32,000 bases of DNA from Ruminococcus albus 7 = DSM 20455 (GTDB lineage Bacteria > Bacillota > Clostridia > Oscillospirales > Ruminococcaceae). The position numbers and the translations under genes are program-made. This document shows positions 3,139 through 29,272 of this stretch, piece after piece. The notes under the pieces were generated by a model. The model saw only the letters and a list, made by a program, of their open reading frames with translations. It was not told the DNA's origin and did not search any database. Position 1 is the stretch's first letter. Each line of letters begins with the position of its first letter. Location: NCBI RefSeq assembly GCF_000179635.2, contig NC_014833.1:1800001-1832000 (forward strand), written 5' to 3'.

Positions 3139-3191
3139 AGCAGTATTTACTCCTTTTCATCAAATGATGCATATCTGCACTAGTGATTACT

Positions 3192-3220
3192 ATTATAACA
3201 TTTTGTTCATTCTTTGTCAA
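3192..3220 (-). promoter_or_regulatory. Consensus sigma-A-type promoter of the P-type ATPase gene
   Basis: The minus strand reads TTGACA, a 17-nt spacer, then TATAAT, about 50 nt upstream of the ATG at 3138. Confidence 0.5.
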
Positions 3221-3277
3221 CGCTGAAAATGGTAATATGGTAAAGTTTGATATTATATATCAATTCATAAATATATA

Positions 3278-3307
3278 TTGAACTGTTCAAGAAAATTATG
3301 ATATAAT
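3278..3307 (+). promoter_or_regulatory. Candidate promoter for the toxin-like gene
   Basis: TTGAAC, an 18-nt spacer, then TATAAT preceded by TGa (extended -10). This leaves a leader of about 200 nt before the ATG at 3510. Confidence 0.35.
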
Positions 3308-3509
3308 ATATCGGAGTAAATAGATTCAAAACTAATGCTTTATCAGTCGAAGTGGAGAGCGATCTTGCTGCCCGTATATCGAATGATGAAGAAAAGATCC
3401 TTACTGCCCATAACGAATTTTCGGAAAGGCATTGTTTATAAGGAAGTTAACGATATGAAGAGATTAAGGCTATAGAAAAACTTAGCCGGTTTTTGATCGA
3501 GGTGAAATT

Positions 3510-5117
3510 ATGGCTACCATAACATTGAGAAAAAGTAAATTTGACGGATTGGGAAGCGTACTTGACAAGCTTTGCTCGAGCTTTGGAAATTATGACGCTA
3601 CTATGAAGGAACTCAAGCGTTCTGCGGGTGGTGTTGACAGCTCTACCTGCAATCTGGAAGACGTTATTGATGATATTTCCAATTCTGAAGAAAGCAAAGA
3701 AGAAAAGGTCAAGAGGGCGAAAGAACTTAAATCCAAGCTGGATACCTTTGTTAAATCTGCAGTTCAGCGTGAAAAAGATGCGGCAGATGAGATAGTAAAG
3801 AAGAAAAAAGAATTCTATAAGAAATACGATTACCTCAAACCGGACTCTGAGAAGAGTTTCTGGGAGAGGATGGGAGATAAGATCTCAGGTGCTGCAAAAG
3901 CCATTGGAAAATGGATGCTGGATCATCTTGATGTGATCATTGCTGCAGTAATTATTATTGCGGCAATAGTCATATGTGTTTTCTGTCCTGCGACTGCGAT
4001 CGCGATCATCGGAATAGTAGTGAGCGCTCTATCGGCAGTGATGGGAATTGCAGATCTTGTATGCATGGCTACTCACGGCGGCAAGGATATTGCTCCTGTT
4101 CTGGCTGATAGCGGACATGGTACTTTAGCAAAGATATGGAAAGGAACAAGCACCGGATTAGATGTCGCTTCTATGATCCTGCCTGTGGGTGCGGGTATAA
4201 AATCTGCTATGACAGTCGGCAAAAAAACGTTTGCTCAGGCTTCTAAAGCTATGCTGAAAGATACATGGAAGAGTATCAAAGGTATCCCCAAGGGTATTAA
4301 AGATGGTTTTGCCGCCTTTAAAACTGCTTGTAAGTCTGATGGCTTTATGAAAACATTAGGCAAAACTGCATGGGGCGGATTCAAGAGCTTAACAGGACTT
4401 GATGATATCGCAGAACTGAAGAATATCGGAAAGATAAAGAACAATTCTTTAGTAGCTCTTTCGAGTAAAAACTGGGATGTAGATCTTGACAATATGCGTA
4501 TGACACCTAAAACGGATAAAGCTCGGAATGCACTTGAAGATGCTAGTAACAAGTTAAATCTGAATGCGAAGTTGGATTCTGTTCCATTAACTAAGAACGG
4601 TAAACTGATCGATGTTGATTGGGATAAGATCAGTATGAAGATAGACCTGCCTGATGGGGGAGGTACAATAACACACCTTGGTAAGGATCAGGGCTTTGAT
4701 ATGAAAAACCTGGGATTTGGCGGTGTTAGAGGAAAGGATTATGATTATGCTGTCGAAAAGTTTATAAGTACAGATTATGACAGATTTGGTAATTCAATTA
4801 GAAATGAAATATATGGTAATGCCGGTTCAAGAGTCAATACTACTCTTAATGATGTCTTTGGCACAAATGGTGTAAGATATACTTCAACCAGTAAGAAAAC
4901 AGGTTTGTTTAACTCTTCCGGATTTACTGCTCACGAAAATTATAACATGATGTATGAACATTTTGTTCCTACTGAACTTCATGATATAATATCTCATAGT
5001 GGCGGTACTTCTCATTTAGTGAATGAAATCAGTAAAATCAGGAATATTGATCATTTATTTATGAGAAGTGGTGTAAGTACATTAATTAATGGTACGCAGG
5101 CTGTTTTATCGGATTAA
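3510..5117 (+). CDS. Membrane-spanning polymorphic-toxin-like protein (helical N-terminus, two TM helices, PT-TG-like segment, HNH/EndoVII-like C-terminus)
   Basis: 535 aa with RBS GAGGTG 6 nt upstream and no signal peptide. There is a charged helical N-terminal region. The hydrophobic stretch is VIIAAVIIIAAIVICVFCPATAIAIIGIVVSALSAVMGIADLV. The C-terminal motif is GFTAHENYN..PTELHDIISHSGGTSHLVNEISKIRNIDH. The CDS call is solid, but the functional call is only about 0.4. Confidence 0.75.
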   Translation: MATITLRKSKFDGLGSVLDKLCSSFGNYDATMKELKRSAGGVDSSTCNLEDVIDDISNSEESKEEKVKRAKELKSKLDTFVKSAVQREKDAADEIVKKKKEFYKKYDYLKPDSEKSFWERMGDKISGAAKAIGKWMLDHLDVIIAAVIIIAAIVICVFCPATAIAIIGIVVSALSAVMGIADLVCMATHGGKDIAPVLADSGHGTLAKIWKGTSTGLDVASMILPVGAGIKSAMTVGKKTFAQASKAMLKDTWKSIKGIPKGIKDGFAAFKTACKSDGFMKTLGKTAWGGFKSLTGLDDIAELKNIGKIKNNSLVALSSKNWDVDLDNMRMTPKTDKARNALEDASNKLNLNAKLDSVPLTKNGKLIDVDWDKISMKIDLPDGGGTITHLGKDQGFDMKNLGFGGVRGKDYDYAVEKFISTDYDRFGNSIRNEIYGNAGSRVNTTLNDVFGTNGVRYTSTSKKTGLFNSSGFTAHENYNMMYEHFVPTELHDIISHSGGTSHLVNEISKIRNIDHLFMRSGVSTLINGTQAVLSD

Positions 5118-5134
5118 TGAAAGGAAATTAAGTT

Positions 5135-5596
5135 ATGTTTTTTAGAAAACCCAAAAAGGAAAAAAAAGAAAACGAAAAAATAACCAATTCAGTTTTTGGA
5201 GATCTTGAATTTATTGACTGTGCCTGGGAAGGAGATTCGGTAAGTTCTTTGTTTGGTGAAGAAAAAACTATTGATCTGTATGTATATGCTGATGAAGATG
5301 AAAAGATCATTGAAGAGAACCAGGAAAAAGTTTATCAGAATTATATTCGTAATCGGACGGAAATTGAAGAGGCTGTCAGAAAAGTGATCTTTAAAGAATT
5401 TAAGCTTCCGGAAGATTTTGATCTCAGTTCACGTTTCAGAGAGAGTTCCATAATTGTGACCTGTGACGGTAATTGCGGCATAGCCATCGTTGACAACACG
5501 TATGAAATGGGACATAACCGTTTTAAATTTGTGGTCGAAACCGAACCGGACTACGAATTCACAGATTCAGAAGAGTATTATTTAGAAACTAAATGA
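5135..5596 (+). CDS. Putative cognate immunity protein (acidic, cytoplasmic, 153 aa)
   Basis: It starts 17 nt after the toxin-like gene stop and has its own RBS, AAAGGAAA. It is strongly acidic with no TM segment or signal peptide. The immunity call rests on position and composition only. Confidence 0.55.
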   Translation: MFFRKPKKEKKENEKITNSVFGDLEFIDCAWEGDSVSSLFGEEKTIDLYVYADEDEKIIEENQEKVYQNYIRNRTEIEEAVRKVIFKEFKLPEDFDLSSRFRESSIIVTCDGNCGIAIVDNTYEMGHNRFKFVVETEPDYEFTDSEEYYLETK

Positions 5597-5687
5597 CATC
5601 GCAGCTATTATGGAGCTGCCGGATCGAAGTAATATGAAAAATCTGCATACTTAACAACTGATACCGAAAATTTCATAAAACACAACA

Positions 5688-5761: not shown

Positions 5762-5968
5762 TTATTCTTTTACAAATTCAAAAAGATCACCTGGCTGACA
5801 ATCGAGTGCATCGCATATAGCGTTCATAGTTTCAAAACGTATGCCTTTCATCTTGCTGGTTTTAAGGTTGGATAGGTTGACGTTTGACATCCCGACTTTT
5901 TCTGCCAGCTCATTCAAGGACATTTTGCGGTCAGCCATTATTCTGTCAAGTCTGATTATTATAGCCAT
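5762..5968 (-). CDS. Small XRE-family helix-turn-helix transcriptional regulator (YozG-like)
   Basis: 68 aa. The motif LDRIMADRKMSLNELAEKVGMSNVNLSNLKTSK is a typical Cro/C1 HTH. RBS AAAGGTGG. It sits immediately downstream of the DUF2975-like gene. Confidence 0.9.
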   Translation of the reverse strand: MAIIIRLDRIMADRKMSLNELAEKVGMSNVNLSNLKTSKMKGIRFETMNAICDALDCQPGDLFEFVKE

Positions 5969-5980
5969 ATAGTACCACCT

Positions 5981-6445
5981 TTACGCAATAAGGTCGTTTT
6001 CCTGCTGAAGTTTGAGACCGTAAACGAAAACTTCGGATATTAAACCGATGATTATACTTATTCCGATGACCAGGATGTTCATTGTATTATAGTTAAGCAC
6101 TCTGCAATATTCATGTTCTGAGATCGGTGTTGTAGTATAGGGCGGAACTAATGCACCGGTAACAAACAGGATAAATCCCATAATACGCAGCTTTGTGATT
6201 ATCTTTTTTGAAAAAGGCTTTCCTGTTTTGCGTATCTCAAGCAGTATCATCGCGAGAAGTCCCAACTCTGAAAAAATCGCTAAAGTGTAGATCCCATTTA
6301 TCAGTAGTTCGATCATTTGAGGATTGTTGATGTAGCTGATAAACTCACATATAGCTACAACTAATGATGTAAAGCATAAAAGACCGATCACTACTGAGTT
6401 AATGATAGAACGTTTTTTTAGTTTTTCGGATATTTTGGGGTTCAT
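5981..6445 (-). CDS. DUF2975-like integral membrane protein
   Basis: 154 aa with four hydrophobic segments and RBS AAAGGAGA. The pairing of this membrane protein with a small XRE HTH gene is a recurrent Firmicutes arrangement. Confidence 0.75.
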   Translation of the reverse strand: MNPKISEKLKKRSIINSVVIGLLCFTSLVVAICEFISYINNPQMIELLINGIYTLAIFSELGLLAMILLEIRKTGKPFSKKIITKLRIMGFILFVTGALVPPYTTTPISEHEYCRVLNYNTMNILVIGISIIIGLISEVFVYGLKLQQENDLIA

Positions 6446-11209: not shown

Positions 11210-13075
11210 TCATCTAATGGTTACTGTAACAGCGTGTTTGATAGACTCTGTGGATGTCCATTCACCGTTAACCTTAGCTGCGATAGCAACCTTGTAGGTC
11301 ATGCCGGGTGTAAGGTTCTTGGGGGTAACAAAGCTTCTTGAAGATGCAGGTATATAGGAATTCTGAACTCTCCACTTGCCTGCAAGATAAACAGCGATGC
11401 CGTAGTTTGTAGCGCCGTTTACAGGAGACCAAACAAACTGTACCTGATGATACTGCTTGTTGTAGTTGACAGCTGTAATTTCAGGATAAACTCCGGGATT
11501 ATTATTGTTGTTATTATTGTTATTGTTGTTATTGTTGTTGTTATTATTGCCGAAGGAATAATTCTTCTTGAATTCAGAAGCGCTGTTTACAATGCTTGCA
11601 GCGCCATCACCGTTGCTGCCGTAAAGATTTACAAGTGCTGCACAAGCAAGAGCGAAGCATCCGTTGTAATCAAGTGCACCTTCTGTCCAGCGGTAGCTGT
11701 CGGTAACTTCATTGAATGTACCGGAGGAATCAGGTCCGCCGATGAGATAACCATAGTTTACATAGGTAGCATTAGGATTGGAGGAAGCATCTCCGTTGCC
11801 TGGATTTGCAGCTCTGTGGTGTACCTTGGGTGACCATGATGAGCCGTAGCCTGTCAGGAAGCTCTTATTATAGGGATTGTTGCCGAGTATATAGTTCATC
11901 TGATACTTAGCACCCTTTGCAAGAGAAGAATTTGAATCGTTGCCGATAGATGCAAGTGCTTCCATCTGAACAGCACAGTTGTAACGTGTGCAGCCCCACT
12001 CCTGTTTGCAGGAATTGTAAGTACCCTCATTCAGACCGCCCATATTGTTTACTTCAAACTGAAGCTCCTTAGCGTATGCGGAATCACCGGTCTTTTTGTA
12101 CATCAGTGCAGCGTAACCTGACCATACCTTATCCCAGCTGTACAGATAATAATCGTAGTACTGATTATTGTAGCAGCCGTTGCCTGTAGGCTTGAAGGAA
12201 GGTTCACCGCGCTCACCCAGAATATACAGCCAGCCTTCTGCCATAGCCTGTTCATCCTGATACTGGGAATTTGTTGCATACATGGAACCCATACCTTCCA
12301 TATAGTTACCTGTATGCTGCGTACCGAACTTATAAAGAGCCTTAGCATACTTTGTACACTTTGCTGCATAGGATGCATCTGTATCCTTGAATGCTACCGC
12401 AGTACCTGCAAGGGCGCTTGCCATTTCCAGTACTATAACTGAGTTGTTGCCGGAATTTGTCAGCCAGTATGTAGGACGATCGCCGTTCTGCTTTTCGGGA
12501 GAACCCCAGTAGCTGTGGTCACCCTCATTTGATACCATATAGCATACAGCACCTACATCACCATTGTTATCCAGGAATGTAGTCTTCATCAGGTAATCTG
12601 CGCCGTTTCTCAGGATGTACAGCAGATGATCACGGCAGCCTGCCTTCTGATATGCACCGGGATTGAGATAATCCGAAAGAGCAAGGCTGTTCATACCAAA
12701 GCCTATGGTCAGGTTGAACTTAATATGGTCGCCTGCATCGTGATAACCACCGGAAACATCCACCTTACCGTCACCGTCAGGATCTACGATACTTCTTGCG
12801 CCGCCGAGATTGACAGCATTTGAAAGATTTGCCTGTGCATCACTTACGTGGCAATTGCCTCTCCATGCCAGAGGGTTGTCATCGACACCTGTACCGCACT
12901 GGTTGGAATCATAGAAATAAAGGGATAATGCCAATGCATCTGAATAATTGGCATCTCCTCCGGCTGCACTCGCCTTTATTGCGGGAACTGCCGTTGATAC
13001 CATTGCACCGGCTGATAATACCAGTGCAGTTGCGAATGCTGCGATCTTTGAAGATCTTCTTCCATGTTTTTTCAT
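11210..13075 (-). CDS. Secreted GH9 endoglucanase with a poly-Asn linker and C-terminal FN3-like domain
   Basis: Signal peptide MKKHGRRSSKIAAFATALVLSAGAMVSTAVPAIKASA. GH9 motifs are GGYHDAGDHIKFN and HHRAANP. N x17 is followed by an approximately 90-aa domain with FN3-like W..V.GATNY...L.PGMTYKV. No dockerin or recognisable CBM was seen. Confidence 0.93.
   Translation of the reverse strand: MKKHGRRSSKIAAFATALVLSAGAMVSTAVPAIKASAAGGDANYSDALALSLYFYDSNQCGTGVDDNPLAWRGNCHVSDAQANLSNAVNLGGARSIVDPDGDGKVDVSGGYHDAGDHIKFNLTIGFGMNSLALSDYLNPGAYQKAGCRDHLLYILRNGADYLMKTTFLDNNGDVGAVCYMVSNEGDHSYWGSPEKQNGDRPTYWLTNSGNNSVIVLEMASALAGTAVAFKDTDASYAAKCTKYAKALYKFGTQHTGNYMEGMGSMYATNSQYQDEQAMAEGWLYILGERGEPSFKPTGNGCYNNQYYDYYLYSWDKVWSGYAALMYKKTGDSAYAKELQFEVNNMGGLNEGTYNSCKQEWGCTRYNCAVQMEALASIGNDSNSSLAKGAKYQMNYILGNNPYNKSFLTGYGSSWSPKVHHRAANPGNGDASSNPNATYVNYGYLIGGPDSSGTFNEVTDSYRWTEGALDYNGCFALACAALVNLYGSNGDGAASIVNSASEFKKNYSFGNNNNNNNNNNNNNNNNNPGVYPEITAVNYNKQYHQVQFVWSPVNGATNYGIAVYLAGKWRVQNSYIPASSRSFVTPKNLTPGMTYKVAIAAKVNGEWTSTESIKHAVTVTIR
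11498..11548 (-). repeat. 17 consecutive Asn codons (mixed AAT/AAC) encoding the GH9 linker
   Basis: The plus strand reads att/gtt triplets without interruption for 51 nt. Confidence 0.95.
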
Positions 13076-18980: not shown

Positions 18981-19322
18981 ATGAGAACTAATTTTAATAT
19001 CGAAAACACAGATACGATAGATACATTGGCTTATAGGGAACAGACTAAGATGATGATATTGCAGATAGCTGATGGTATGGACTGGTCCGACATGGAAAGA
19101 CATTTCTCGCTGCTGCGTGAGAAACTGGATACCTATATATGGTATATAGATTCAAAACAGTATGAAGATAAGTATCCCGATGTAGAAAGGATAGAGTTAA
19201 GGGTGACATTTCTTTTCAAGGAGCCTGATGTATGTATAAAGCTGCTTGAAAAGGCAGGAGAGGTGCTTCACCGCGTTTTTGAAAACTCTGCATTGATAGT
19301 TGAATGCGGAGAAAGGGAATAA
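18981..19322 (+). CDS. Hypothetical small acidic protein (113 aa)
   Basis: RBS AAAGGAGAA is well placed. No family is confidently recognised. Confidence 0.65.
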   Translation: MRTNFNIENTDTIDTLAYREQTKMMILQIADGMDWSDMERHFSLLREKLDTYIWYIDSKQYEDKYPDVERIELRVTFLFKEPDVCIKLLEKAGEVLHRVFENSALIVECGERE

Positions 19323-20824: not shown

Positions 20825-23800
20825 GTGAGGACAGTGAGAAGTTTAAGAGGCAGTAATATCAAAAAACGTGTGTCGGCACTTTCTATGGCAGCGATGATAG
20901 TTATTGAACAGCTTGCATACATAGATCCGATGATAGCATATTCTGCCAGATCGGCATCTTCTAATGGATCGTCAGATTTTCCCGCAGTGACTTCAAGCGG
21001 TGTATCCGCATCACTTGAACATAAAGATCAGCTGGTAGATAACGGTGACGGTACTTACACATTTACTTCTGATATTACTTCAGCTTATTCATATCACGAT
21101 GAAAGCGGCGACAGACTTCGTTTTCAGTCGGATACTTATGAATTCGATAAGCCCGGCAAATATCTCATTGAGTTGTGGGGCGGTGACGGTGGTGACGGAA
21201 GTTCGTTGTTCCCACTGAGCTTTAAAGCAGGTTCAGGCGGTAAGGGCGGTTTCGTGTACGGTGTGCTTACTGTTACTCCTGAAGATGTGGATGCTAAGAA
21301 AAAGCTTTACTACGAAATAGGAAGTAAAGGACTTAGCCAGACAAGAAGTATCGCAGGCGGCGGTACAGGCGGTATCGGCGGCGGTGCTGGCGATATAGCT
21401 GTATTCTCGGTAGGTGCAGGCGGCGGCGGTGGCGGCGGCGCAGGCGCAGCCCTTCACACACTGCCCGGTATATTCGGCGGTGACGGACGTGCAAACGGCG
21501 GCGAAGGCGGAACATTCTTAAGCAGCCTTAGCGATACCCCGAATATCAAAGCATTTACAAGCGGTACTTATTACGCAGGTGAAAACGGCAAGACTTCGGG
21601 TACTAAGGCAGCCTATGTAGGACAGGGCGGTACAGACCGTCCCGGTGAACTGGTAGAAAGTTTCATAGGTTTCCTTGAAGCTTCATCCTATCCTAACGAC
21701 TGGCAGAAGTCATACCACCCAGATGCTGACAGAGGTATCGGCGGTGCAAGTAACTTCCGAGGCGGCGGCGGTTCTTCCTATGTAGGTGCTTACAGTTATT
21801 TCGAAGAGAACTCGAAAGGTTCTGATGATCTCTTTGTTGAGAGAGACGGAAACACAAACGCTGATGTGGGCGGTGCTGTAGTTATAAGATATCTTCCCGA
21901 TAGCAACAGCGATTACGCTTATCTTGATAACATCACAGTAAGCGGTGGAGTTTCAGAATATTTCGATATCGTATCAATGAACTGCACAAACAATAAGTAT
22001 AATGCTTCAAGCAAGAAAATGCAGTTATTGAATGTTTCATCTACAAAAACAGATAATAACTTCACAGTTAACGGTTCGGTAGCACCTGTACCCGATGGTC
22101 TTGACAAAGGTCAGGCGCAGGATACCCTTACAGTTTCAATAACTGTAAGACCGAAGAAAGCATTCTTCGGCGGACTTAACGTACCTGTATTCACAGGTGA
22201 CTTTGCTGTAAAGGACAGTGATAATTCAAAGAATTCGACTATATCTTATACCGATAATGTTACCCATGTAAACGTGCCTTACAATATCAGTATAACTGCT
22301 AAGAACTCAACAAAGCAGACAGGCGATACTGTATTAAAAGGTGATCTGTTTGAGCAGGAGATAGCTTATGAAGCAGATGATCCGATGCAGGATTTCATAA
22401 GCGGCATAACCTATAGAATAGATGATATTTCTGCAAATAGTTTCAGCGACACTATAACATCTGCTGATGTATCAAACGGCAGAAAAGCATTCTCGGTGAA
22501 AGCAACACTTGTTCCAAAGAGTGGTACTGCGGCACAAGTTGGTGAAGCAGGCAACCCGACAGTAACTAAGACAGTATATGTTCGATGCATAAGTGACAGT
22601 GTGCTGGATGTTGACGGATATGAGATCAATGCAGAAAAGTCATTGGCTTATAATGAAACCGATGATACTTACGATCTTACCGTTGATATGAACGTTGAGA
22701 ATCAGGATGCTAAATCATTCAGTATTATAGATCCTATTGAGAGTGAAAATGTACTTGATATTGTTTATAATGCAACCTCAAATCTCAGTAGTTCTAATGA
22801 TTATGTTAGTATAAGCAGAAATCAAGATAATAATAGCAATAATACTAAATATTCCGGTACGCTTCAACCCGGTATCTATTATGTTGAGGTATGGGGCGGT
22901 GATGGCGGAAGTGGATTCAATGATCCAACCAATAATCTTTCAAGTGCTGTTAGTAATAATACATATGGCGGTTATGGAGGAAAAGGTGGTTTCATTAGTG
23001 GATATGTCACTTTGGTTAGCGAGAAGCAGCTGGAAATTGTGTTAGGTCCCAAAGGAATTAAGGGTGATAGTTCAAATCCTGCAGGCAAAGGAGGTAAAGC
23101 AACATATGTAAATATTGGTGATGAGTCTGATGATATGACCTTTGTTGCAGGCGGAGGTGGAGGAGGTTCTACCTATTTGAAATATAGTGGAACCGATCAG
23201 AATAGTCATATGGGATACTCTGGTAATGATGGTTATAGAATTGGTGGAACCTCAGTTTATAAAGGTAGTTCTTCTAATGGAAATGATTATTACGATGTAA
23301 GTAAATATGATGGAGCAGATGCTATTTCTGTTAGTATAAGTACCGGTTTAAATCCTTATCGTAGAATTAGTAATTTCAATAATAATATTGCCAGTTATTT
23401 TGCTAAGGGTGGTTACAGCGAAATAGGTAGTGGTGTTCAAACTGAGATTGCTGATATAATGTATATTGACAATGGTGTGCATGATATTACAGTTGATCTT
23501 GGTCTATATGAATATGTTAATTATTTTAATAGTGGCATTGTTAGCAATTATTATATAAGCCAGTGGACAAACAAGAGTGGAGATCCAGAATACGTTTCTA
23601 ATGATGATGAGTACGAACGTGTTTCATCCTATAAAGGTACAACTAAGACTTCTATAGGAACAACAGGAGCGGTAAAAATCACCAGGCTTGGCGTACGCAC
23701 CAGACATAACTATGGTGGTACTGAAGTTGGAGTAGATACTTCTAATTCTGTTACACTTGCAAACATTGAAGAACAGATCAAAAATGATTATGCTAACGCT

Positions 23801-26518
23801 AATTGCTATGACAGTTTTACGTTAACAGGCAACTTTACAGATTATTTTGATCTGCAGGCTAATTCAAACTACTCAATCGTAGATAACATTGGATCACATC
23901 AGTTTGCTCTTTCAAATGCTAATGTACAATCAACAGCATCAACAACTACTAACGGGTATACTCAAAGTACTCTGCCGGGCTATACATTTAAAAAGTATGA
24001 TTATGTGTACAAGCTTAAAGGCAACGATTCAGTTACATTCAAACTAAAACCGATAAACGGCTTCTTAGGCGGTAACGATGTACCACTGCTAAACAGCGCA
24101 ACACTGACACATCATAACAATACTGTTGAAGATGATGATACAAAGTCTATCGTAGCTGACAACGCAACCGACTTCGCAAATGTCAGACTTGCATCCGAAA
24201 CACTGGCAGATGAAACCTACATAACTGTAGATACATCGCCAATATTCGTTGAATACGGCGGAACGCTTTCGGAAAGTGATTTCACTAATACAAAGAAGAC
24301 ATTTGAAAGCAGCAATCTTGCAGATGACTATGCACGGTTTACAGATTTTGGATATGAGCCGGATCTGAATAATGCAATAACAGCGGATACAAATGTTATT
24401 GTTACAGCAGGGCTTGAACCAACATCTGATAATGCAGCAAGAGCAACGGTGATCGATCCCGTAAGCAGGGCAGAGAGAAACTTCAGCGTACCTGTTTACG
24501 TGAAGTATCCTATCACAACTACCCTGACTAACGTTACAGCTGCTAAGGCTGACGGAACTCAATTCCCGTCAAGCGGTGAGTTCTTCCCCACATCGGTGGA
24601 TGACAGAGATCTGACGATCGTACTCAGTGCAGTTGACGGTTATGATCTGCCCGCTGCAGACGATGTTACAGTGACAGGTGCAGATGCATCTATCGAAAAG
24701 CGCGACGGTAATATTTACGTTACTATCCCGCGAAGCACTATAACAGGTGTGGTCACCATAACAGCATCAGGAGTGCAGGTAACACATAAGGTACATTATA
24801 TGTACGAGTACTACGATCCGCTGTCAGAGCAGATCTCGGTACAAAGTGTAGTTGATACGCATGAGTATAAAAACGGTGATTTCCTCGAGGGTCTGAATTT
24901 CCCGAACGTAACCGGTGCGTATCCCGTGGGATACGATGACTACGACTGGGATTTCGGACAGACCGAATACGATGATGACAGCGGCAAATACAAAATGGGT
25001 CAGGAGGATATCTACATAATAGGTACCTACGTTCCCATAACCTATAAGCTGGTGATAAACTACGTTCTAAAAGATACGGATAACCAAATTCTCGAAACGT
25101 ACACCTCACCCGACAGGACACAATACCATGAAGATACTGATACCTTTGATATAGCACTTACAAAGGGTGCAGACTTCTTTATAAAGTCCCCCGATATCAC
25201 GGGTTACGTAACAGATACCCCGTACGTTTCGGGCAAGGTAGATAATGCGTTTATCGATTCTCTTAATGAAACTATCACTATTGGTGAAAAGACATACAAG
25301 AGCAAGACGATCAATGTATATTATGAACCAAACCCTGATAACGTGATCGTACACTTCGTCAAGTGTGATGTCAGAGGAGTTCCGATCGAAAATGATGGCA
25401 ATACTATAACCAGAATCACAGAGGCAATTGGTGTTGGCGTTGACTATGATTTGGAATCGGAAATACTATCCAATATTACTAATGATGAATACGAGATAAT
25501 CAAACGTACAAGACAAACAGATACGGCCGAAGAAGAGGTGACTACCGTTTCGGGTACTATCACAGATGCAGATCAGATCGAAACATACTACGTTTACTAT
25601 AGAGCAAAACCCGGAAAAGTTACGGTTGAGTTCTACAAAGAGCGTGATGATGCATCACCTGACAAATCCAAGACTTGTGAGGTTGGCAGAGAGTATGGCT
25701 ATAACGCTGATCTTAAAGAATTTGATTCTCTCCCAAGAGCCGTAAAGGATAACTGCAGACTTGTTGGCTGGGAAACCGAAGACGGCAAGCTTATCGAGGA
25801 CGATACGATAGTCGAGGGCGAGGATGGTACTAGAATAAAGCTGTACGCTAAATGGGCATCAATGAAGGTTACTATACACGTTGATTATCGATACGCTGAG
25901 AATGTTGAGAATGAAACGATTCGCGGAACTGAGGCAGATACACCATTCACAAAAGAGTATCTCTACGGACAGAGCTATAAGATAGTATCTGGTCATATAC
26001 CTTATTACGAAGCTGTTCCCGGAGTTGTTGAGGGTATAGCCTTGGAAGATAAAACCGAAAAGGTATACTATAAAGACGGCTCAGGTGAGATAAGCATCAT
26101 AGTTGATGTTTACAGCGAGAGCAGTTTGAGTAATACCGCAAATGCTCACAAGCTTAAAGGCGGAACATTCGAGCTGTACAACTCGAGCGGTGAATGCATC
26201 AGCACCAAGCAGAACACTGATGGTTCTGTTACATGGACAAATGTTGAAGTTCGCCTGACAGACGGTGAAAAATACACAGTCAAGTGTACAGATCCACCCG
26301 TGGGATATGCTCCCGGTGAGATAGAGGTGACAGTTCAGGGTACAGAGACCTATGAAGAAATGTTCCTCGGCAAAACCAAATTCAGAATGCCTTTCGCAGG
26401 CAGCACACCGATGACAGGTTATACCGTCGTTGGTACATCCACAATGTTACTTGCTGTTTTCCTGCTGTTCCTTAATATGCGCAGTAAAGCAGAAGAAAAA
26501 AGAATAAAAAACAATTAG
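20825..26518 (+). CDS. Giant sortase-anchored surface/pilus-tip adhesin (two glycine-rich modules, MucBP/Listeria-Bacteroides-repeat-like domains, CnaB/SpaA-like domain, MPFAG sorting signal)
   Basis: 1897 aa with a GTG start. The GTG at 20834 is an equally good start behind AGAGGTGAGG. The N-terminus is basic then hydrophobic. WGGDGG...GGKGGF...GGGGGG modules occur twice. RLVGWETEDGKLIEDDTIVEGEDGTRIKLYAKW is a Listeria-Bacteroides-type repeat. The C-terminus has MPFAG, a hydrophobic helix and RSKAEEKRIK. Confidence 0.9.
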   Translation: MRTVRSLRGSNIKKRVSALSMAAMIVIEQLAYIDPMIAYSARSASSNGSSDFPAVTSSGVSASLEHKDQLVDNGDGTYTFTSDITSAYSYHDESGDRLRFQSDTYEFDKPGKYLIELWGGDGGDGSSLFPLSFKAGSGGKGGFVYGVLTVTPEDVDAKKKLYYEIGSKGLSQTRSIAGGGTGGIGGGAGDIAVFSVGAGGGGGGGAGAALHTLPGIFGGDGRANGGEGGTFLSSLSDTPNIKAFTSGTYYAGENGKTSGTKAAYVGQGGTDRPGELVESFIGFLEASSYPNDWQKSYHPDADRGIGGASNFRGGGGSSYVGAYSYFEENSKGSDDLFVERDGNTNADVGGAVVIRYLPDSNSDYAYLDNITVSGGVSEYFDIVSMNCTNNKYNASSKKMQLLNVSSTKTDNNFTVNGSVAPVPDGLDKGQAQDTLTVSITVRPKKAFFGGLNVPVFTGDFAVKDSDNSKNSTISYTDNVTHVNVPYNISITAKNSTKQTGDTVLKGDLFEQEIAYEADDPMQDFISGITYRIDDISANSFSDTITSADVSNGRKAFSVKATLVPKSGTAAQVGEAGNPTVTKTVYVRCISDSVLDVDGYEINAEKSLAYNETDDTYDLTVDMNVENQDAKSFSIIDPIESENVLDIVYNATSNLSSSNDYVSISRNQDNNSNNTKYSGTLQPGIYYVEVWGGDGGSGFNDPTNNLSSAVSNNTYGGYGGKGGFISGYVTLVSEKQLEIVLGPKGIKGDSSNPAGKGGKATYVNIGDESDDMTFVAGGGGGGSTYLKYSGTDQNSHMGYSGNDGYRIGGTSVYKGSSSNGNDYYDVSKYDGADAISVSISTGLNPYRRISNFNNNIASYFAKGGYSEIGSGVQTEIADIMYIDNGVHDITVDLGLYEYVNYFNSGIVSNYYISQWTNKSGDPEYVSNDDEYERVSSYKGTTKTSIGTTGAVKITRLGVRTRHNYGGTEVGVDTSNSVTLANIEEQIKNDYANANCYDSFTLTGNFTDYFDLQANSNYSIVDNIGSHQFALSNANVQSTASTTTNGYTQSTLPGYTFKKYDYVYKLKGNDSVTFKLKPINGFLGGNDVPLLNSATLTHHNNTVEDDDTKSIVADNATDFANVRLASETLADETYITVDTSPIFVEYGGTLSESDFTNTKKTFESSNLADDYARFTDFGYEPDLNNAITADTNVIVTAGLEPTSDNAARATVIDPVSRAERNFSVPVYVKYPITTTLTNVTAAKADGTQFPSSGEFFPTSVDDRDLTIVLSAVDGYDLPAADDVTVTGADASIEKRDGNIYVTIPRSTITGVVTITASGVQVTHKVHYMYEYYDPLSEQISVQSVVDTHEYKNGDFLEGLNFPNVTGAYPVGYDDYDWDFGQTEYDDDSGKYKMGQEDIYIIGTYVPITYKLVINYVLKDTDNQILETYTSPDRTQYHEDTDTFDIALTKGADFFIKSPDITGYVTDTPYVSGKVDNAFIDSLNETITIGEKTYKSKTINVYYEPNPDNVIVHFVKCDVRGVPIENDGNTITRITEAIGVGVDYDLESEILSNITNDEYEIIKRTRQTDTAEEEVTTVSGTITDADQIETYYVYYRAKPGKVTVEFYKERDDASPDKSKTCEVGREYGYNADLKEFDSLPRAVKDNCRLVGWETEDGKLIEDDTIVEGEDGTRIKLYAKWASMKVTIHVDYRYAENVENETIRGTEADTPFTKEYLYGQSYKIVSGHIPYYEAVPGVVEGIALEDKTEKVYYKDGSGEISIIVDVYSESSLSNTANAHKLKGGTFELYNSSGECISTKQNTDGSVTWTNVEVRLTDGEKYTVKCTDPPVGYAPGEIEVTVQGTETYEEMFLGKTKFRMPFAGSTPMTGYTVVGTSTMLLAVFLLFLNMRSKAEEKRIKNN

Positions 26519-26530
26519 GAGGTTCTTATT

Positions 26531-28351
26531 ATGAAAAAATTGTACAAGCGTTCCACAGCAATAGCAGTATCGGCATTAATGATGTCGCAGATGATTCCTT
26601 ACAATGTGTTTGCATCGGAAAATCCAACCGGTCCTAACTCGCTGACTATCCATCCGTATATCCTGAGTGACGCAAAATATGCAGAAGCAAAGCAAGCTAA
26701 CAAAACTCCTAGTGGTTTAGGTACTACCGATGCTATAGCAGCTGATACAGATTTAGCTGATAATTACGATGCAACTGAATCACAGGATGTTACATTTACT
26801 CTTACTGAGGTTACCAGTACAGGTGCTGCAAAACAAGGTGGTATTAAAATTACAACTCCTTCAAAGTCATTTTCATCTCTGCCTGATGGTTACTACAAGA
26901 TAACACCTAATAATACTTCTACAGATGCTAACTTAAAAGAAGTTGAATCATTCTTCATCCAGCTTCCTTCGGGTTCAAACAGAGATGTGTACATTTATCC
27001 TAAGCTGACAGATAACCATGATAATGGTGATCATAACACCCCTGGTACACTTCATGATGCAACTGATCCTACCTCAAAGGATAAGCACTCGATAGAGCTT
27101 ACCAAGAAACTTAGTGGTGACGCAGCGTGGACTAGTGGTATGAGTGCTACATTCCAGTTATATTCTCAGGATGCTATGGGCAACTGGGTAGACGGCGGTA
27201 CACATGATACTGATGCTAATGGTAAAGTCATAGTTGATGGTCTGCCTTATGGTACATACTATATGTATGAAACATCTGCTGTAACTGGTTATCTTAAGAA
27301 TAGCAGTCCTGTAAAGTTCGTCCTCGATGGTACAGCGAGCTCGGTTCAGAAGGCTGACCTTACAAATGATAAGAAGCTTACAGTTTCAAAGGCAATAGAT
27401 GTTGATGGTAAGGGACATACCTATAACTGGACGATCACAGCTGATGTTCCTGTAAATTCTGAAAACCTGATGAGTTACTCCATAACCGATACTTTTGAAA
27501 ACCTTAAGGAAGTTAATGTAGTAAGCGTCTTTTCAGGAAGTGATGAACTGGATGAAGATGTTGATTATACTGTTTCGACAAATGGTAATAAATTGACAGT
27601 TGAGATCGATGATCCTTCATCACTTGAATCGGATGCTGATATTGTTATAAAGGTAGAATCAAAATTAGTTGATGGTTTCACATCAGGTTCTGAGGCTACA
27701 AATACATCTTCGATAGATTATCAGTATGCTTATGATCCTGATAATGATAGCAGGATCCCATCTCAGATACCCAATGACATACCAAATATACCCAATCCCA
27801 ATCCCGATGATCCCGATCCCACTGATCCCAATAATCCTCCTGTTGTAAGTTATCCTGATGGTACTGAAGAAGAACTCCATAATACCGAAACAGTAACACC
27901 TGCAACTATTACAATTTCAAACTATGCGACAGGAACAACCACTGAACTGAAAAAAAGTAAATATAGTATAACAGGTTGCAGCAATCATGATGATGACGAT
28001 GCCAGTGATATTGTTACTCTTGAAAACCTCGCACCCGGTGTCTATGAGATCACTCAGCTCGGTACACAGGAAAACTACAAAATCGATGAAAACGTTAAGA
28101 CTATCTTTATTGACAAGAATGGTAAAGTTTATGAAGGTGACACAGCTGATTCAACAAAAGAAATTACAAATAAAAAAATAATATTCTATAATGATCCAAT
28201 TTCTGATAACTTCCAGCTGCCTTTCACCGGTACTACTGCAACTATCGTATTCACCATAGGCGGTATCGCTATAATGGCAGGCGCTGCATTCTTCATCATA
28301 GTTCTCTTCAAGAAGAAGGACGAAGAGGAAGAAGAGCAGAACAAAGCATAA
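26531..28351 (+). CDS. Major (shaft) pilin: signal peptide, YPK pilin motif, E-box, LPFTG cell-wall sorting signal
   Basis: AGGAGG RBS. The signal peptide ends at VFA-SE. The pilin motif VYIYPKLTD has YPK at 26996-27004. The E-box-like sequence is YYMYETSAVTGY. LPFTG lies at 28217-28231, followed by a TM helix and a KKKDEEEEE tail. Confidence 0.88.
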   Translation: MKKLYKRSTAIAVSALMMSQMIPYNVFASENPTGPNSLTIHPYILSDAKYAEAKQANKTPSGLGTTDAIAADTDLADNYDATESQDVTFTLTEVTSTGAAKQGGIKITTPSKSFSSLPDGYYKITPNNTSTDANLKEVESFFIQLPSGSNRDVYIYPKLTDNHDNGDHNTPGTLHDATDPTSKDKHSIELTKKLSGDAAWTSGMSATFQLYSQDAMGNWVDGGTHDTDANGKVIVDGLPYGTYYMYETSAVTGYLKNSSPVKFVLDGTASSVQKADLTNDKKLTVSKAIDVDGKGHTYNWTITADVPVNSENLMSYSITDTFENLKEVNVVSVFSGSDELDEDVDYTVSTNGNKLTVEIDDPSSLESDADIVIKVESKLVDGFTSGSEATNTSSIDYQYAYDPDNDSRIPSQIPNDIPNIPNPNPDDPDPTDPNNPPVVSYPDGTEEELHNTETVTPATITISNYATGTTTELKKSKYSITGCSNHDDDDASDIVTLENLAPGVYEITQLGTQENYKIDENVKTIFIDKNGKVYEGDTADSTKEITNKKIIFYNDPISDNFQLPFTGTTATIVFTIGGIAIMAGAAFFIIVLFKKKDEEEEEQNKA

Positions 28352-28396
28352 TTAATTAGTTAAAACAATGATAAGGTTCTCCGTGAACTGAACGCT

Positions 28397-28436
28397 ATAA
28401 GTGCCGCTGCTTTGTCGGCGGCACTTATAATTTTTC
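28397..28436 (+). terminator. Intra-operon hairpin (possible partial terminator) between pilin and sortase genes
   Basis: 11-bp stem ataagtgccgc / gcggcacttat with a 10-nt loop, then aa-ttttt. Confidence 0.45.
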
Positions 28437-28453
28437 AATAGGAGGAAAAACTG

Positions 28454-29272
28454 TTGGGCAAGAAGAAAAACAAAAAGAAACGATTAGGCATTATATTGCT
28501 CTTGCTCCTGTTCCTGATAGGATTGGTCTTGTTCCTTTACCCGTTTATCAGCAGGATCTTTATAAACAAAAAAGTCGATGAAAATATACAGAATCTCAAA
28601 GATGACCTGAACAGGATCATAAACGAATCTATTGAAAACGGAGATCTCAATATTGAAGACCTGCCTCTTGATGAAGAGGGCAGACCCGCACCGTATGAAA
28701 GGATAAAGTATGATATAGAGGAGGAGGAGAGTCAGCCTTACCTCGATGACCTTTATCAGTATATGCGCAGGCGCAACAGGGAACTCTTTGAGTCATCGCA
28801 GTCGCAGCTTGATTCGCAGGAATCATATAAGTACCCTGAATTCGATCTGAAGTCTTACGGTCTTAATACAGAAAGTATAGGTACTCTTGAAATATCAAGA
28901 CTGGGATTGAAGCTGCCTGTATTTCTGGGTGCAAACGATTATAACCTTACAGCGGGTTGTGGTCACCTGACTTATACAACTTATCCCATAGGCGGTTATA
29001 ACACAAATTGTGTTATTGCTGTGCACAGGGGACTTGGCGGATCTGATTTTCTGAGATATGTAGAAAAGCTTGAAAGCGGCGATGTGGTGCGTGTACAGAA
29101 TTACTGGTATACACTGGAATACAAAGTCGTAGATCATGTGATCGTTGATCCTGATGAAGTGGATTCCGTACTTATACAGCCGGGCAAGGATATGCTCACA
29201 CTTTATACCTGTCATCCCTATGGTATAAACAACCGAAGGTACCTGGTATACTGTGAGAGAGTTATAAAATAA
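28454..29272 (+). CDS. srtC: Class C (pilin-polymerising) sortase
   Basis: TTG start behind AGGAGGA. There is an N-terminal TM anchor. The catalytic His is in VIAVHRG, the Cys in TLYTCHPYG and the Arg in NRRYLVYCERV. Confidence 0.9.
   Translation: MGKKKNKKKRLGIILLLLLFLIGLVLFLYPFISRIFINKKVDENIQNLKDDLNRIINESIENGDLNIEDLPLDEEGRPAPYERIKYDIEEEESQPYLDDLYQYMRRRNRELFESSQSQLDSQESYKYPEFDLKSYGLNTESIGTLEISRLGLKLPVFLGANDYNLTAGCGHLTYTTYPIGGYNTNCVIAVHRGLGGSDFLRYVEKLESGDVVRVQNYWYTLEYKVVDHVIVDPDEVDSVLIQPGKDMLTLYTCHPYGINNRRYLVYCERVIK

Follow-up and report, generated by a model that had tools for sequence, protein, structure and literature searches.

At positions 3510-5596, on the plus strand, of a 32,000-nucleotide (nt) stretch of Ruminococcus albus 7 (NC_014833.1, positions 1,800,001 to 1,832,000; the whole analysed stretch is called the window here) lie two adjacent genes. 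The first encodes a 535-amino-acid (aa) protein built like a polymorphic toxin, and the second a 153-aa acidic protein in the place where an immunity gene would be expected. From comparison of the predicted proteins with their homologues, we consider it probable that the two genes form an orphan effector-immunity module. The polymorphic toxin family to which they belong is proposed to work with a type VII-like secretion system found in Clostridia. The products are most likely an antibacterial DNase-type toxin and the immunity protein that protects against it. The two genes, with the parts of the toxin, are as follows.

3510..5117, plus strand: polymorphic toxin gene, whole open reading frame (ORF), 535 aa (ORF call)
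3510..3884, plus strand: N-terminal helical domain, aa 1 to about 125, putative trafficking module shared by the family (common to 75 of 75 listed homologues)
3813..3854, plus strand: FYxxYxYLKP[DE]xEK, the most conserved motif of the N-domain, aa 102-115 (alignment of 58 sequences)
3909..4073, plus strand: hydrophobic hairpin of two back-to-back predicted transmembrane helices, aa 134-188, with a C-P-A turn in the centre (hydropathy)
4074..4394, plus strand: Gly/Lys-rich amphipathic segment, aa 189-295, including the motif LD.AS.ILP.GAG.K (conserved in the alignment)
4395..4409, plus strand: G-x-D-D-[IL] motif, aa 296-300, putative junction at the constant/variable boundary (D298 and D299 invariant)
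4410..4829, plus strand: variable middle region, aa 301-440, common to the closest toxin relatives only (alignment; G+C content 0.374)
4830..5114, plus strand: C-terminal WHH/Colicin-DNase-like (HNH/EndoVII) domain, 'xHE' variant (profile matches; core motif aa 471-498, nt 4920-5003)
5135..5596, plus strand: candidate immunity gene, acidic, 153 aa, DUF6985 family (ORF call and PF22481 match)

The toxin gene stops with TAA at 5115-5117 and the small ORF starts with ATG at 5135, leaving a spacer of 17 nt. Both genes have many homologues, i.e., at least 75 for the toxin in a search of 5.8 billion proteins and 132 for the small ORF, and thus neither is a chance ORF. Over 6.4 kb, the DNA of the window matches the R. 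albus assembly GCA_000621285.1 with 100% identity. A first-pass annotation, made from the letters of the sequence, had described the two ORFs with their sizes, the 17-nt spacer and a ribosome-binding site (RBS) for the second gene, and all of these were confirmed. The three peptides that it quoted are present at aa 63-106, 211-239 and 471-515 of the toxin. It had also stated that the toxin has no signal peptide, and no N-terminal hydrophobic signal-like segment was found; the acidity that it assigned to the small ORF product is borne out by a computed isoelectric point of 4.5, with 37 Asp and Glu residues against 21 Lys and Arg.

Constant front half and alternative C-termini

Residues 1 to about 140 of the toxin are common to all 75 listed homologues, and in many of them the similarity detected by BLASTP extends to aa 179, 250 or 308. 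Homology breaks off at around aa 140, at 179, at 250 or at 300-311, with one subfamily sharing everything up to the last of these points, and only about 17 of the at least 75 listed homologues match over their whole length. The homologues that diverge past the N-terminal part carry PT-HINT, then LHH, WHH/Colicin-DNase, Tox-GHH, GH-E, Ntox15, EndoU or a deaminase. When the homologue list is taken together with 58 genome-derived members, PT-HINT and at least 12 different Pfam toxin families are found behind the shared N-terminus (the toxin families being WHH, Colicin-DNase, LHH, Tox-GHH, GH-E, Ntox15, EndoU, TNT, Cytotoxic, NucA/NucB, deaminase and ADP-ribosyl cyclase), with PT-HINT present in 29 of the 58 members and Ntox15 in the members P0049 and P0061. 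A profile of aa 1-138 retrieved 751 clusters at 50% identity (376 of them at E≤1e-10), and in nearly all complete proteins among the matches listed the N-domain starts at residue 1. Scanning one genome per species yielded 137 relatives in Ruminococcus, Oscillospiraceae, Lachnospiraceae, Agathobacter, Eubacterium, Ruminiclostridium hungatei, Anaerosporobacter and others, with seven of the loci kept belonging to R. hungatei. Judged by its predicted domains, the window protein is a polymorphic toxin in the sense of Zhang et al. (2012), having a constant N-terminus and alternative C-terminal toxins; sharing of one N-terminal module among toxin domains and PT-HINT is a signature of exported polymorphic toxins. 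The first-pass annotation had named homologues with a conserved C-terminus and no adjacent small ORF as the outcome that would speak against it, and what came out is the same N-terminus with different C-termini and a co-varying small ORF.

The N-domain belongs to no Pfam family in any of the 58 members, which gave no LXG (PF04740) match at E≤1e-3; the window protein gave no LXG match at E≤1. An AlphaFold2 (AF2) model of the N-terminal 138 aa, made with 23 sequences, is all-helical with a predicted local distance difference test score (pLDDT) of 59, and Foldseek matched it to generic helical bundles only (E>1). Comparison with the profile of the WXG100-like protein from the secretion locus described below gave an hhalign probability of 3%, i.e., no detectable similarity. 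Against PDB sequences the N-domain produced matches of coiled-coil composition only, single-sequence searches of the PDB were empty, and a scan of NCBIfam returned nothing useful. The earlier proposal that the N-terminal family may be undescribed is in keeping with its absence from Pfam and with the lack of detectable LXG similarity. Within the FYxxYxYLKP[DE]xEK motif, residues F102, Y103, Y106, L109, P111, E114 and K115 are invariant across the alignment of 58 sequences, whose mean identity is 21%. The long helix ends with this motif, shortly ahead of the hairpin, and Y108-x3-D112 within the motif recalls the YxxxD/E export motif of T7SSa substrates (T7SS, type VII secretion system); on the strength of this likeness, the motif could conceivably act as a secretion signal.

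Residues 134-188 form one continuous hydrophobic stretch (Kyte-Doolittle, 19-aa window, maximum 3.25), consistent with a hairpin of two helices that turns at C-P-A, as the first-pass annotation had proposed in describing two hydrophobic helices in the middle of the protein. A hydrophobic segment starting at aa ~130-137 is present in 55 of the 57 complete family members. In the Gly/Lys-rich segment that follows, G191, A195, G202, L206, G212, G216, P225 and G227 are invariant. The resemblance of this segment to PT-TG domains, suggested earlier, was not supported by Pfam: PF14449 gave no match for the window protein even at E≤1, and none among the 58 family members. BLASTP homology to the subfamily of members that reside in the secretion locus ends at aa 300-311, just past the G-x-D-D motif, which we take from the alignments to be the probable junction between the constant and variable parts.

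The base composition changes along the pair, with a G+C content of 0.41-0.44 in the shared N-terminal part of the toxin gene, 0.33-0.37 in its variable C-terminal part and 0.35 in the immunity gene. The region had been described, by eye, as AT-richer than its flanks. Its G+C content of 0.384 is indeed below the window mean of 0.415, but the difference is modest (16th percentile of same-size windows) and the real feature is the gradient within the pair. At the DNA level, the part encoding the N-domain and hairpin is 80% identical over 3537-4093 to a locus-resident paralogue, and because identity is only 80% there is no sign of recent exchange between the two. A plasmid search gave no match.

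The xHE domain and its candidate DUF6985 partner

The C-terminal domain was compared across about 20 diverse sequences, which are 27-95% identical over full length. Its core motif reads T-A-H475-E476...V-P...H491...H496-x-G; H475, E476, V486, H496 and G498 are invariant in the full-length group, T473 and P487 are nearly so, and position 491 is either His or Asn (Asn in P0012, P0013, P0016 and P0048). The succession of [LV]P, then N/H, then HxGG is in the register of the WHH family, as V486-P487, H491 and H496-S-G498-G, and A-H475-E476 stands where WHH has W-H-H. The Glu is invariant in the clade, and some relatives read T-W-H-E. When the C-termini were scanned singly, 13 of 18 matched Pfam WHH (PF14414) and 10 of 18 matched Colicin-DNase (PF12639) at the same place, most of them below threshold; the relatives above at least one Pfam cutoff are P0048 (T-W-H-E; 44.9 and 52.9 bits), L057b (26.3 and 29.7 bits) and L090 (Colicin-DNase, 26.4 bits). 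Searched against the PDB, the family profile found the Rhs WHH toxin 8bd1 with E=6.6e-4, in an alignment that pairs l-H-E with W-H-H, V-P with I-P, and H-t-G-g with H-T-G-G. Given the relatives' Pfam matches and this profile match, sequence similarity places the C-terminus, as a divergent form, within the WHH/Colicin-DNase branch of HNH/EndoVII domains. An AF2 model of the C-terminal 133 aa (18 sequences) has E70-74, E81-85 and H86-92 in fragment numbering, i.e., strand-strand-helix, at a mean pLDDT of 52. Foldseek of this model against the PDB gave only noise, the best E being 4, and did not show a ββα-metal fold.

The first-pass annotation had recognised an HNH/EndoVII-like C-terminus. That placement is upheld by the WHH/Colicin-DNase clade (the 13 of 18 relatives and 8bd1), but the window protein itself falls below the Pfam threshold and the fold did not emerge from the low-scoring model. 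The motif register given with it, centred on ELHD, was mistaken, since the His of 'ELHD' (H491) occupies the HNH 'N' position and is Asn in four relatives; the equivalent of the colicin HH dyad is A-H475-E476.

The 153-aa protein matches DUF6985 (PF22481) with 28.6 bits (cutoff 24.5, E=2.3e-6) over profile positions 2-69 of 148 only, and a DUF6985 match was obtained in 8 of 11 relatives. The NCBI name of the identical protein is 'DUF6985 domain-containing protein [Ruminococcus albus]'. A literature search for DUF6985 found no paper, and the immunity-family profile found no related structure in the PDB. To define where such genes occur, a hidden Markov model (HMM) of six relatives was run against the 3101 ORFs of at least 70 aa from the loci fetched to that point. 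It matched only directly 3' of xHE-type toxins, at 10 distinct loci in at least five taxa (the window, L001-3, L094, L095, L004/5, L018, L057 with four copies, L075, L090/L080 and L038), which span R. albus, other Clostridia metagenome-assembled genomes (MAGs), Lachnospiraceae and R. hungatei. No DUF6985-like ORF followed degenerate or other C-termini among the loci scanned.

The degenerate C-termini belong to the paralogues that reside in the secretion locus (P0010, P0017, P0019-24 and L112). Their C-terminus is homologous to that of P0012/P0013-type toxins (in small search spaces, E=6e-19 by HMM and down to 2e-14 by BLASTP). In place of the H-E dyad they have other residues, mostly D/N-T, the final His is missing, and the gene directly next encodes a tetratricopeptide repeat (TPR) protein, with no DUF6985 gene. 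Because these paralogues lack both, catalytic-type residues and immunity gene are kept or lost together. Judged by sequence, these paralogues appear to be relatives without catalytic activity that are retained at a fixed position, where they may have an accessory function; examples of their genes are L013:3027-4712, L009:3075-4940, L012:10001-11770 and L112:3985-5643. The small ORF had originally been placed in the immunity position by its location, and it also co-varies with toxin type in homologous loci. These patterns suggest immunity as the probable function of DUF6985.

A contrary explanation is that the C-terminal domain is not an active nuclease, its activity having changed or been lost, and that the small ORF encodes a partner other than an immunity protein. 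The window protein has A-H-E for W-H-H and lies below the Pfam cutoff, the ββα-metal fold was not confirmed, and degenerate relatives do exist. However, H475, E476, H496 and G498 are invariant in the ~20 diverse sequences, presence and absence of the DUF6985 gene follow exactly those of the catalytic-type residues, and W-H-E members of the clade pass the Pfam thresholds. We therefore regard an inactive domain as quite unlikely.

Further observations concern the arrangement of these genes. In L095 (8001-11888), tandem xHE toxin genes encode 612 and then 515 aa, and a single DUF6985-like ORF stands after the second; the first toxin (P0012), in which Asn occupies the HNH 'N' position, ends in H-D-G-D and lacks an immunity ORF of its own. 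In R. hungatei (L057:11486-13692), three tandem genes for 170-aa DUF6985-like proteins follow one xHE toxin, and a fourth, more divergent, follows a second toxin; such an array is typical of polymorphic toxin loci. Homologues of the 153-aa protein (P0224-P0336) form more than 100 clusters at 90% identity, are 81-90% identical to the window copy and come mostly from short rumen-metagenome contigs. Close toxin clusters are far fewer than immunity clusters among the matches listed, a surplus that may reflect orphan immunity genes or the limited number of toxin matches listed.

Type VII-like secretion locus and genomic surroundings

Several family members, namely P0063 (of the PT-HINT type), P0017, P0024, P0010, P0003 and P0012, adjoin one conserved gene set. 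In order, the locus encodes a coiled-coil protein (~200 aa), the family member (in some cases with an immunity protein), a TPR protein (~505 aa), a protein of ~105 aa, a WXG100-like protein (~115 aa), another protein of ~105 aa, one of ~390 aa, an FtsK/SpoIIIE ATPase (1080-1176 aa), a further ATPase-like protein (~625 aa), two small proteins, a Ser/Thr kinase and a Big_13 protein (~1900 aa). An instance is L112:3076-23531 (R. albus GCA_000526775.1, 518-542 kb), and others are L009, L012, L013, L006, L094 and L095. This type VII-like locus occurs in Ruminococcus, Oscillospiraceae, Lachnospiraceae and Ruminiclostridium, with the ATPase split into ~1176 and ~625 aa; three of its proteins are ~105-117 aa long, and the WXG100-like one has an F-S-G-S-A-A motif.

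Within the fetched flanks, a gene of the conserved core (TPR protein, WXG100-like protein and split FtsK/SpoIIIE ATPase) lies no more than 10 kb away in 43 of 77 family loci, and in 18 of the 25 for which either flank extends to 8 kb or more; the chance expectation is ~1%, on a rough estimate. P0003, encoded inside a type VII-like locus, is 60% identical to the window protein over full length and shares its toxin type; the immunity gene behind it encodes 158 aa (68% identical). The MAG GCA_002372055.1 holds both P0001, a 95% orthologue in the same ATPase/HTH context (HTH, helix-turn-helix) as in the window, and the P0017 contig with its T7SS locus. In the closed genome of R. albus GCA_000526775.1, the locus is at 518-542 kb and an orphan pair of the same toxin type is at 1.81 Mb, 1.27 Mb apart. 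From the family loci near the WXG100/FtsK-SpoIIIE set, P0003, the shared MAG and the closed genome, we infer that the pair in the window belongs to this type VII-like system as an orphan module of effector and immunity protein. The first-pass annotation had allowed that the delivery route may be undescribed; the window does lack secretion genes, but elsewhere the family is strongly linked to WXG100 and FtsK/SpoIIIE loci.

The pair could instead be a genuine toxin-immunity pair whose delivery is independent of the type VII-like machine: the hairpin would insert by itself, release would occur by lysis, vesicles or surface display, and the linkage would reflect co-regulation or shared ancestry. 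The window pair and 7 of the 25 well-flanked loci are away from any T7SS-like gene, the N-domain has no LXG or WXG100 similarity, and a hairpin is unusual for T7SS cargo. A 2026 mBio study, in which Tde/Ntox15 toxins are enriched in Oscillospiraceae and Lachnospiraceae, likewise says that tde-positive Ruminococcus MAGs have no dedicated secretion system. Set against this are the 56-72% of loci that lie within 10 kb of the same conserved locus, and the fixed positions of family members, which occur at both locus ends. Orphan effector genes far from the apparatus are normal for type VI secretion systems (T6SS) and for T7SS. We judge this explanation unlikely.

In addition, the window protein might be a structural or accessory membrane component of the T7SS-like apparatus and not a delivered effector, as could be argued from the paralogue class (P0010, P0017, P0024 and L112) at a fixed position in the locus, without catalytic residues or an immunity gene. 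Since the window protein keeps the invariant catalytic-type residues, has a dedicated immunity gene and is encoded away from the locus, we give this possibility the slightest weight of all.

The flanks of the orphan pair of R. albus GCA_000526775.1 (L004:8524-13936) hold a DDE transposase along with fragments of Transposase_mut and phage integrase, which suggests that orphan modules move on, or next to, mobile elements. A phage origin was considered and rejected: two 'Ruminococcus phage' records match only via host DNA to the left of a prophage integrase. The record L115/L116 (GenBank PV036440.1, 'Ruminococcus phage NatCom_28775') is 79.5 kb long and was deposited as a complete phage genome, and its ~39 kb to the left of the integrase are host DNA. 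That host part contains an array of four toxin-family genes with downstream small ORFs and an entire type VII-like locus, with phage genes only after the integrase at 39311.

These surroundings bear on whether the pair is an intracellular toxin-antitoxin or anti-phage abortive-infection module, in which a membrane-anchored nuclease is held in check by the acidic protein. The two-gene operon of a nuclease-like toxin and an acidic partner, the adjacent HTH gene and the orphan copy between transposase and integrase fragments would all suit such a module. It is nevertheless highly improbable in our assessment, because PADLOC gave only weak matches, over the N-terminal helical and hydrophobic region, because the phage matches are host flank, and because many secreted-toxin domains, along with PT-HINT releasing domains, are exchanged behind this one N-terminal module.

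The assignment of the pair to a type VII-like system as an orphan effector-immunity module has several observations to contend with. No secretion-system genes were found by tblastn in the 32-kb window (every E>0.28), in line with the first-pass statement that T7SS, T6SS or contact-dependent inhibition genes are absent nearby, and the T7SS-like locus was seen in other genomes but not shown in GCA_000621285.1. The N-domain is without detectable similarity to LXG or WXG100 by Pfam, hhalign or Foldseek. The hydrophobic hairpin is atypical for a T7SS substrate, and two helices place the N- and C-termini on the same side of a membrane. Against WHH, the window protein scores 12.6 bits as a whole and 15.1 bits as a C-terminal fragment relative to a gathering cutoff of 25.1, and the AF2 models of both the N-domain and the C-terminal domain are of low confidence. 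In colicins E9 and E7, the metal is bound by the first His of the HH dyad, while the second serves as general base; in the xHE domain, Glu stands at the position of the general-base His of colicin E9. All of these weigh against the assignment.

In the mechanism that we propose, the N-domain would target the toxin to a WXG100/FtsK-SpoIIIE machine encoded elsewhere in the R. albus genome. Helper proteins of the locus would probably assist in trans, notably the ~200-aa coiled-coil protein encoded upstream of many locus-resident paralogues. The hydrophobic and Gly-rich module may anchor the toxin in the envelope, or may help to carry the nuclease domain across the target membrane, after which the C-terminal domain would cut nucleic acid in the target cell. 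The 153-aa DUF6985 protein, presumed to be co-transcribed, would bind and neutralise the toxin in the producer and its kin.

A more far-reaching version of this proposal, which we put forward as tentative and think less probable than not, is that the N-domain, hairpin and Gly-rich segment define an uncatalogued, non-LXG effector class for a non-canonical type VII-like system that is widespread in Ruminococcus, Oscillospiraceae, Lachnospiraceae and Ruminiclostridium. In that case, the hydrophobic module would carry toxins that act in the cytoplasm (DNases, EndoU, Ntox15/Tde, TNT and deaminases) across the target membrane, and a WHH-derived xHE nuclease, with Glu in place of the second His, would have in DUF6985 a new family of immunity proteins. 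If true, this would answer the question left open by the 2026 study, i.e., how Tde-type toxins leave Ruminococcus cells.

Toxin delivery by Gram-positive anaerobes of the gut and rumen is poorly understood. One N-terminal module, found with Ntox15 and a dozen other toxin domains beside a WXG100/FtsK-SpoIIIE locus, offers a concrete and testable delivery route, and the N-domain, with its 751 clusters, is a marker for finding effectors in gut and rumen Clostridia. The comparison also identifies a putative WHH-derived nuclease clade with an altered catalytic dyad, for which the degenerate paralogues without an immunity gene are natural controls. In kind, the window protein would be a T7SS-type polymorphic toxin; what is distinctive is the uncatalogued N-terminal and membrane module, the altered WHH dyad and a DUF family as immunity partner. 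Because the pair occurs in cultured R. albus isolates, experiments are feasible.

The remaining features next to the pair are candidate expression signals.

3278..3307, plus strand: promoter-like TTGAAC-18-TATAAT with upstream TG, ~200 nt 5' of the toxin ATG (consensus match only)
3499..3504, plus strand: RBS GAGGTG of the toxin gene, 5 nt before the first ATG (direct sequence reading)
5120..5126, plus strand: RBS AAAGGAA of the immunity gene, inside the 17-nt spacer (direct sequence reading)
5601..5619, no strand assigned: GC-rich inverted repeat between the pair and the convergent HTH gene, with a terminator-like T-run on the minus strand (consensus match only)

Promoter-like sites in the region are no more numerous than in shuffled sequence. 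No upstream partner gene was found: the 327-nt spacer upstream of the toxin gene (3183-3510) contains no ORF longer than 46 aa, and no homologue of the ~200-aa coiled-coil protein of the locus was found anywhere in the window. On the other side, an HTH_26 (Cro/C1-type) gene and a gene for a DUF2975 membrane protein (5762-6445, minus strand) converge on the immunity gene; both are conserved across all syntenic contigs, and nothing was found that connects them with the toxin pair. Further away, a 621-aa secreted protein (11210-13075, minus strand) has an uninterrupted run of 19 Asn, probably an inter-domain linker, and no precomputed Pfam match in syntenic loci. At 18981-19322, a 113-aa ORF matches DUF6572 (E=2e-21) directly 3' of a gene for a 693-aa EAL-domain protein. 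The stretch 20825-29272 encodes a 1897-aa protein with an ALK/LTK glycine-rich domain, then a SpaA-fold LPXTG protein (606 aa) and then a sortase, and is likely a sortase-dependent cluster for surface or pilus proteins, with no relation to the toxin.

Comparison with known systems

The closest general parallel is with the LXG toxins of T7SSb, such as TelA-C of S. intermedius and YeeF/YobL of B. subtilis (Whitney et al., 2017, PMC5555719), which likewise have a helical N-domain (here predicted by modelling), a variable C-terminal toxin and an immunity gene directly 3'. LXG genes also occur at or away from WXG100/FtsK-SpoIIIE loci in Bacillota, with genes for small helical partners in the locus. 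Unlike in LXG toxins, the N-domain of this family is shorter (~125 aa), with no Pfam LXG in the 58 members, and a conserved hairpin and Gly-rich segment precede the toxin, half of the members using PT-HINT. The associated locus differs from T7SSb in that it encodes a TPR protein, its ATPase is split, and EsaA, EssA and EssB were not recognised in it.

T6SS prePAAR effectors have N-terminal transmembrane domains and Eag chaperones. By analogy, the present family may resemble them in its hydrophobic helices in the constant part, a toxin that would act in the cytoplasm, and an upstream helper gene. However, the secretion system and phylum are different, there is no sequence kinship, and what precedes the hydrophobic region is a helical domain, not a prePAAR motif.

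For the C-terminal domain, the comparison is with Tox-WHH/Colicin-DNase (PF14414 and PF12639; PMC3482391; Rhs toxin structures 8bd1 and 8h8a). The succession of x-H-x, ~10 residues, [LV]P, [HN] and HxGG is shared, as are a strand-strand-helix, here predicted by modelling, and the C-terminal placement in polymorphic toxins. Unlike Tox-WHH, the present domain has A, F, L or P where W would stand, and an invariant Glu at the position of the second His. The immunity partner also differs: the Tox-WHH immunities listed by Zhang et al. (2012, PMC3482391) are Imm-SUKH, Imm28 and Imm37, and the partner here, DUF6985, is not among them.

As for the secretion locus, a 2024 survey has described T7SSc-T7SSj (Garrett, Higginson and Palmer, 2024, PMC11217815). 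In that survey and its available supplements, Ruminococcus, Ruminiclostridium, Lachnospiraceae, Agathobacter and Eubacterium are not named, and a ~505-aa TPR protein or a split ATPase is not described there; a further difference from T7SSc-T7SSj is that no YukD-like gene was identified in the locus. The likeness is to T7SSd, e and j as presented there, since the WXG100-like protein, the FtsK/SpoIIIE ATPase, the Ser/Thr kinase and the ~1900-aa Ig-like (Big_13) protein of the Clostridia locus recall TsxA, TsxC, TsxD and TsxI.

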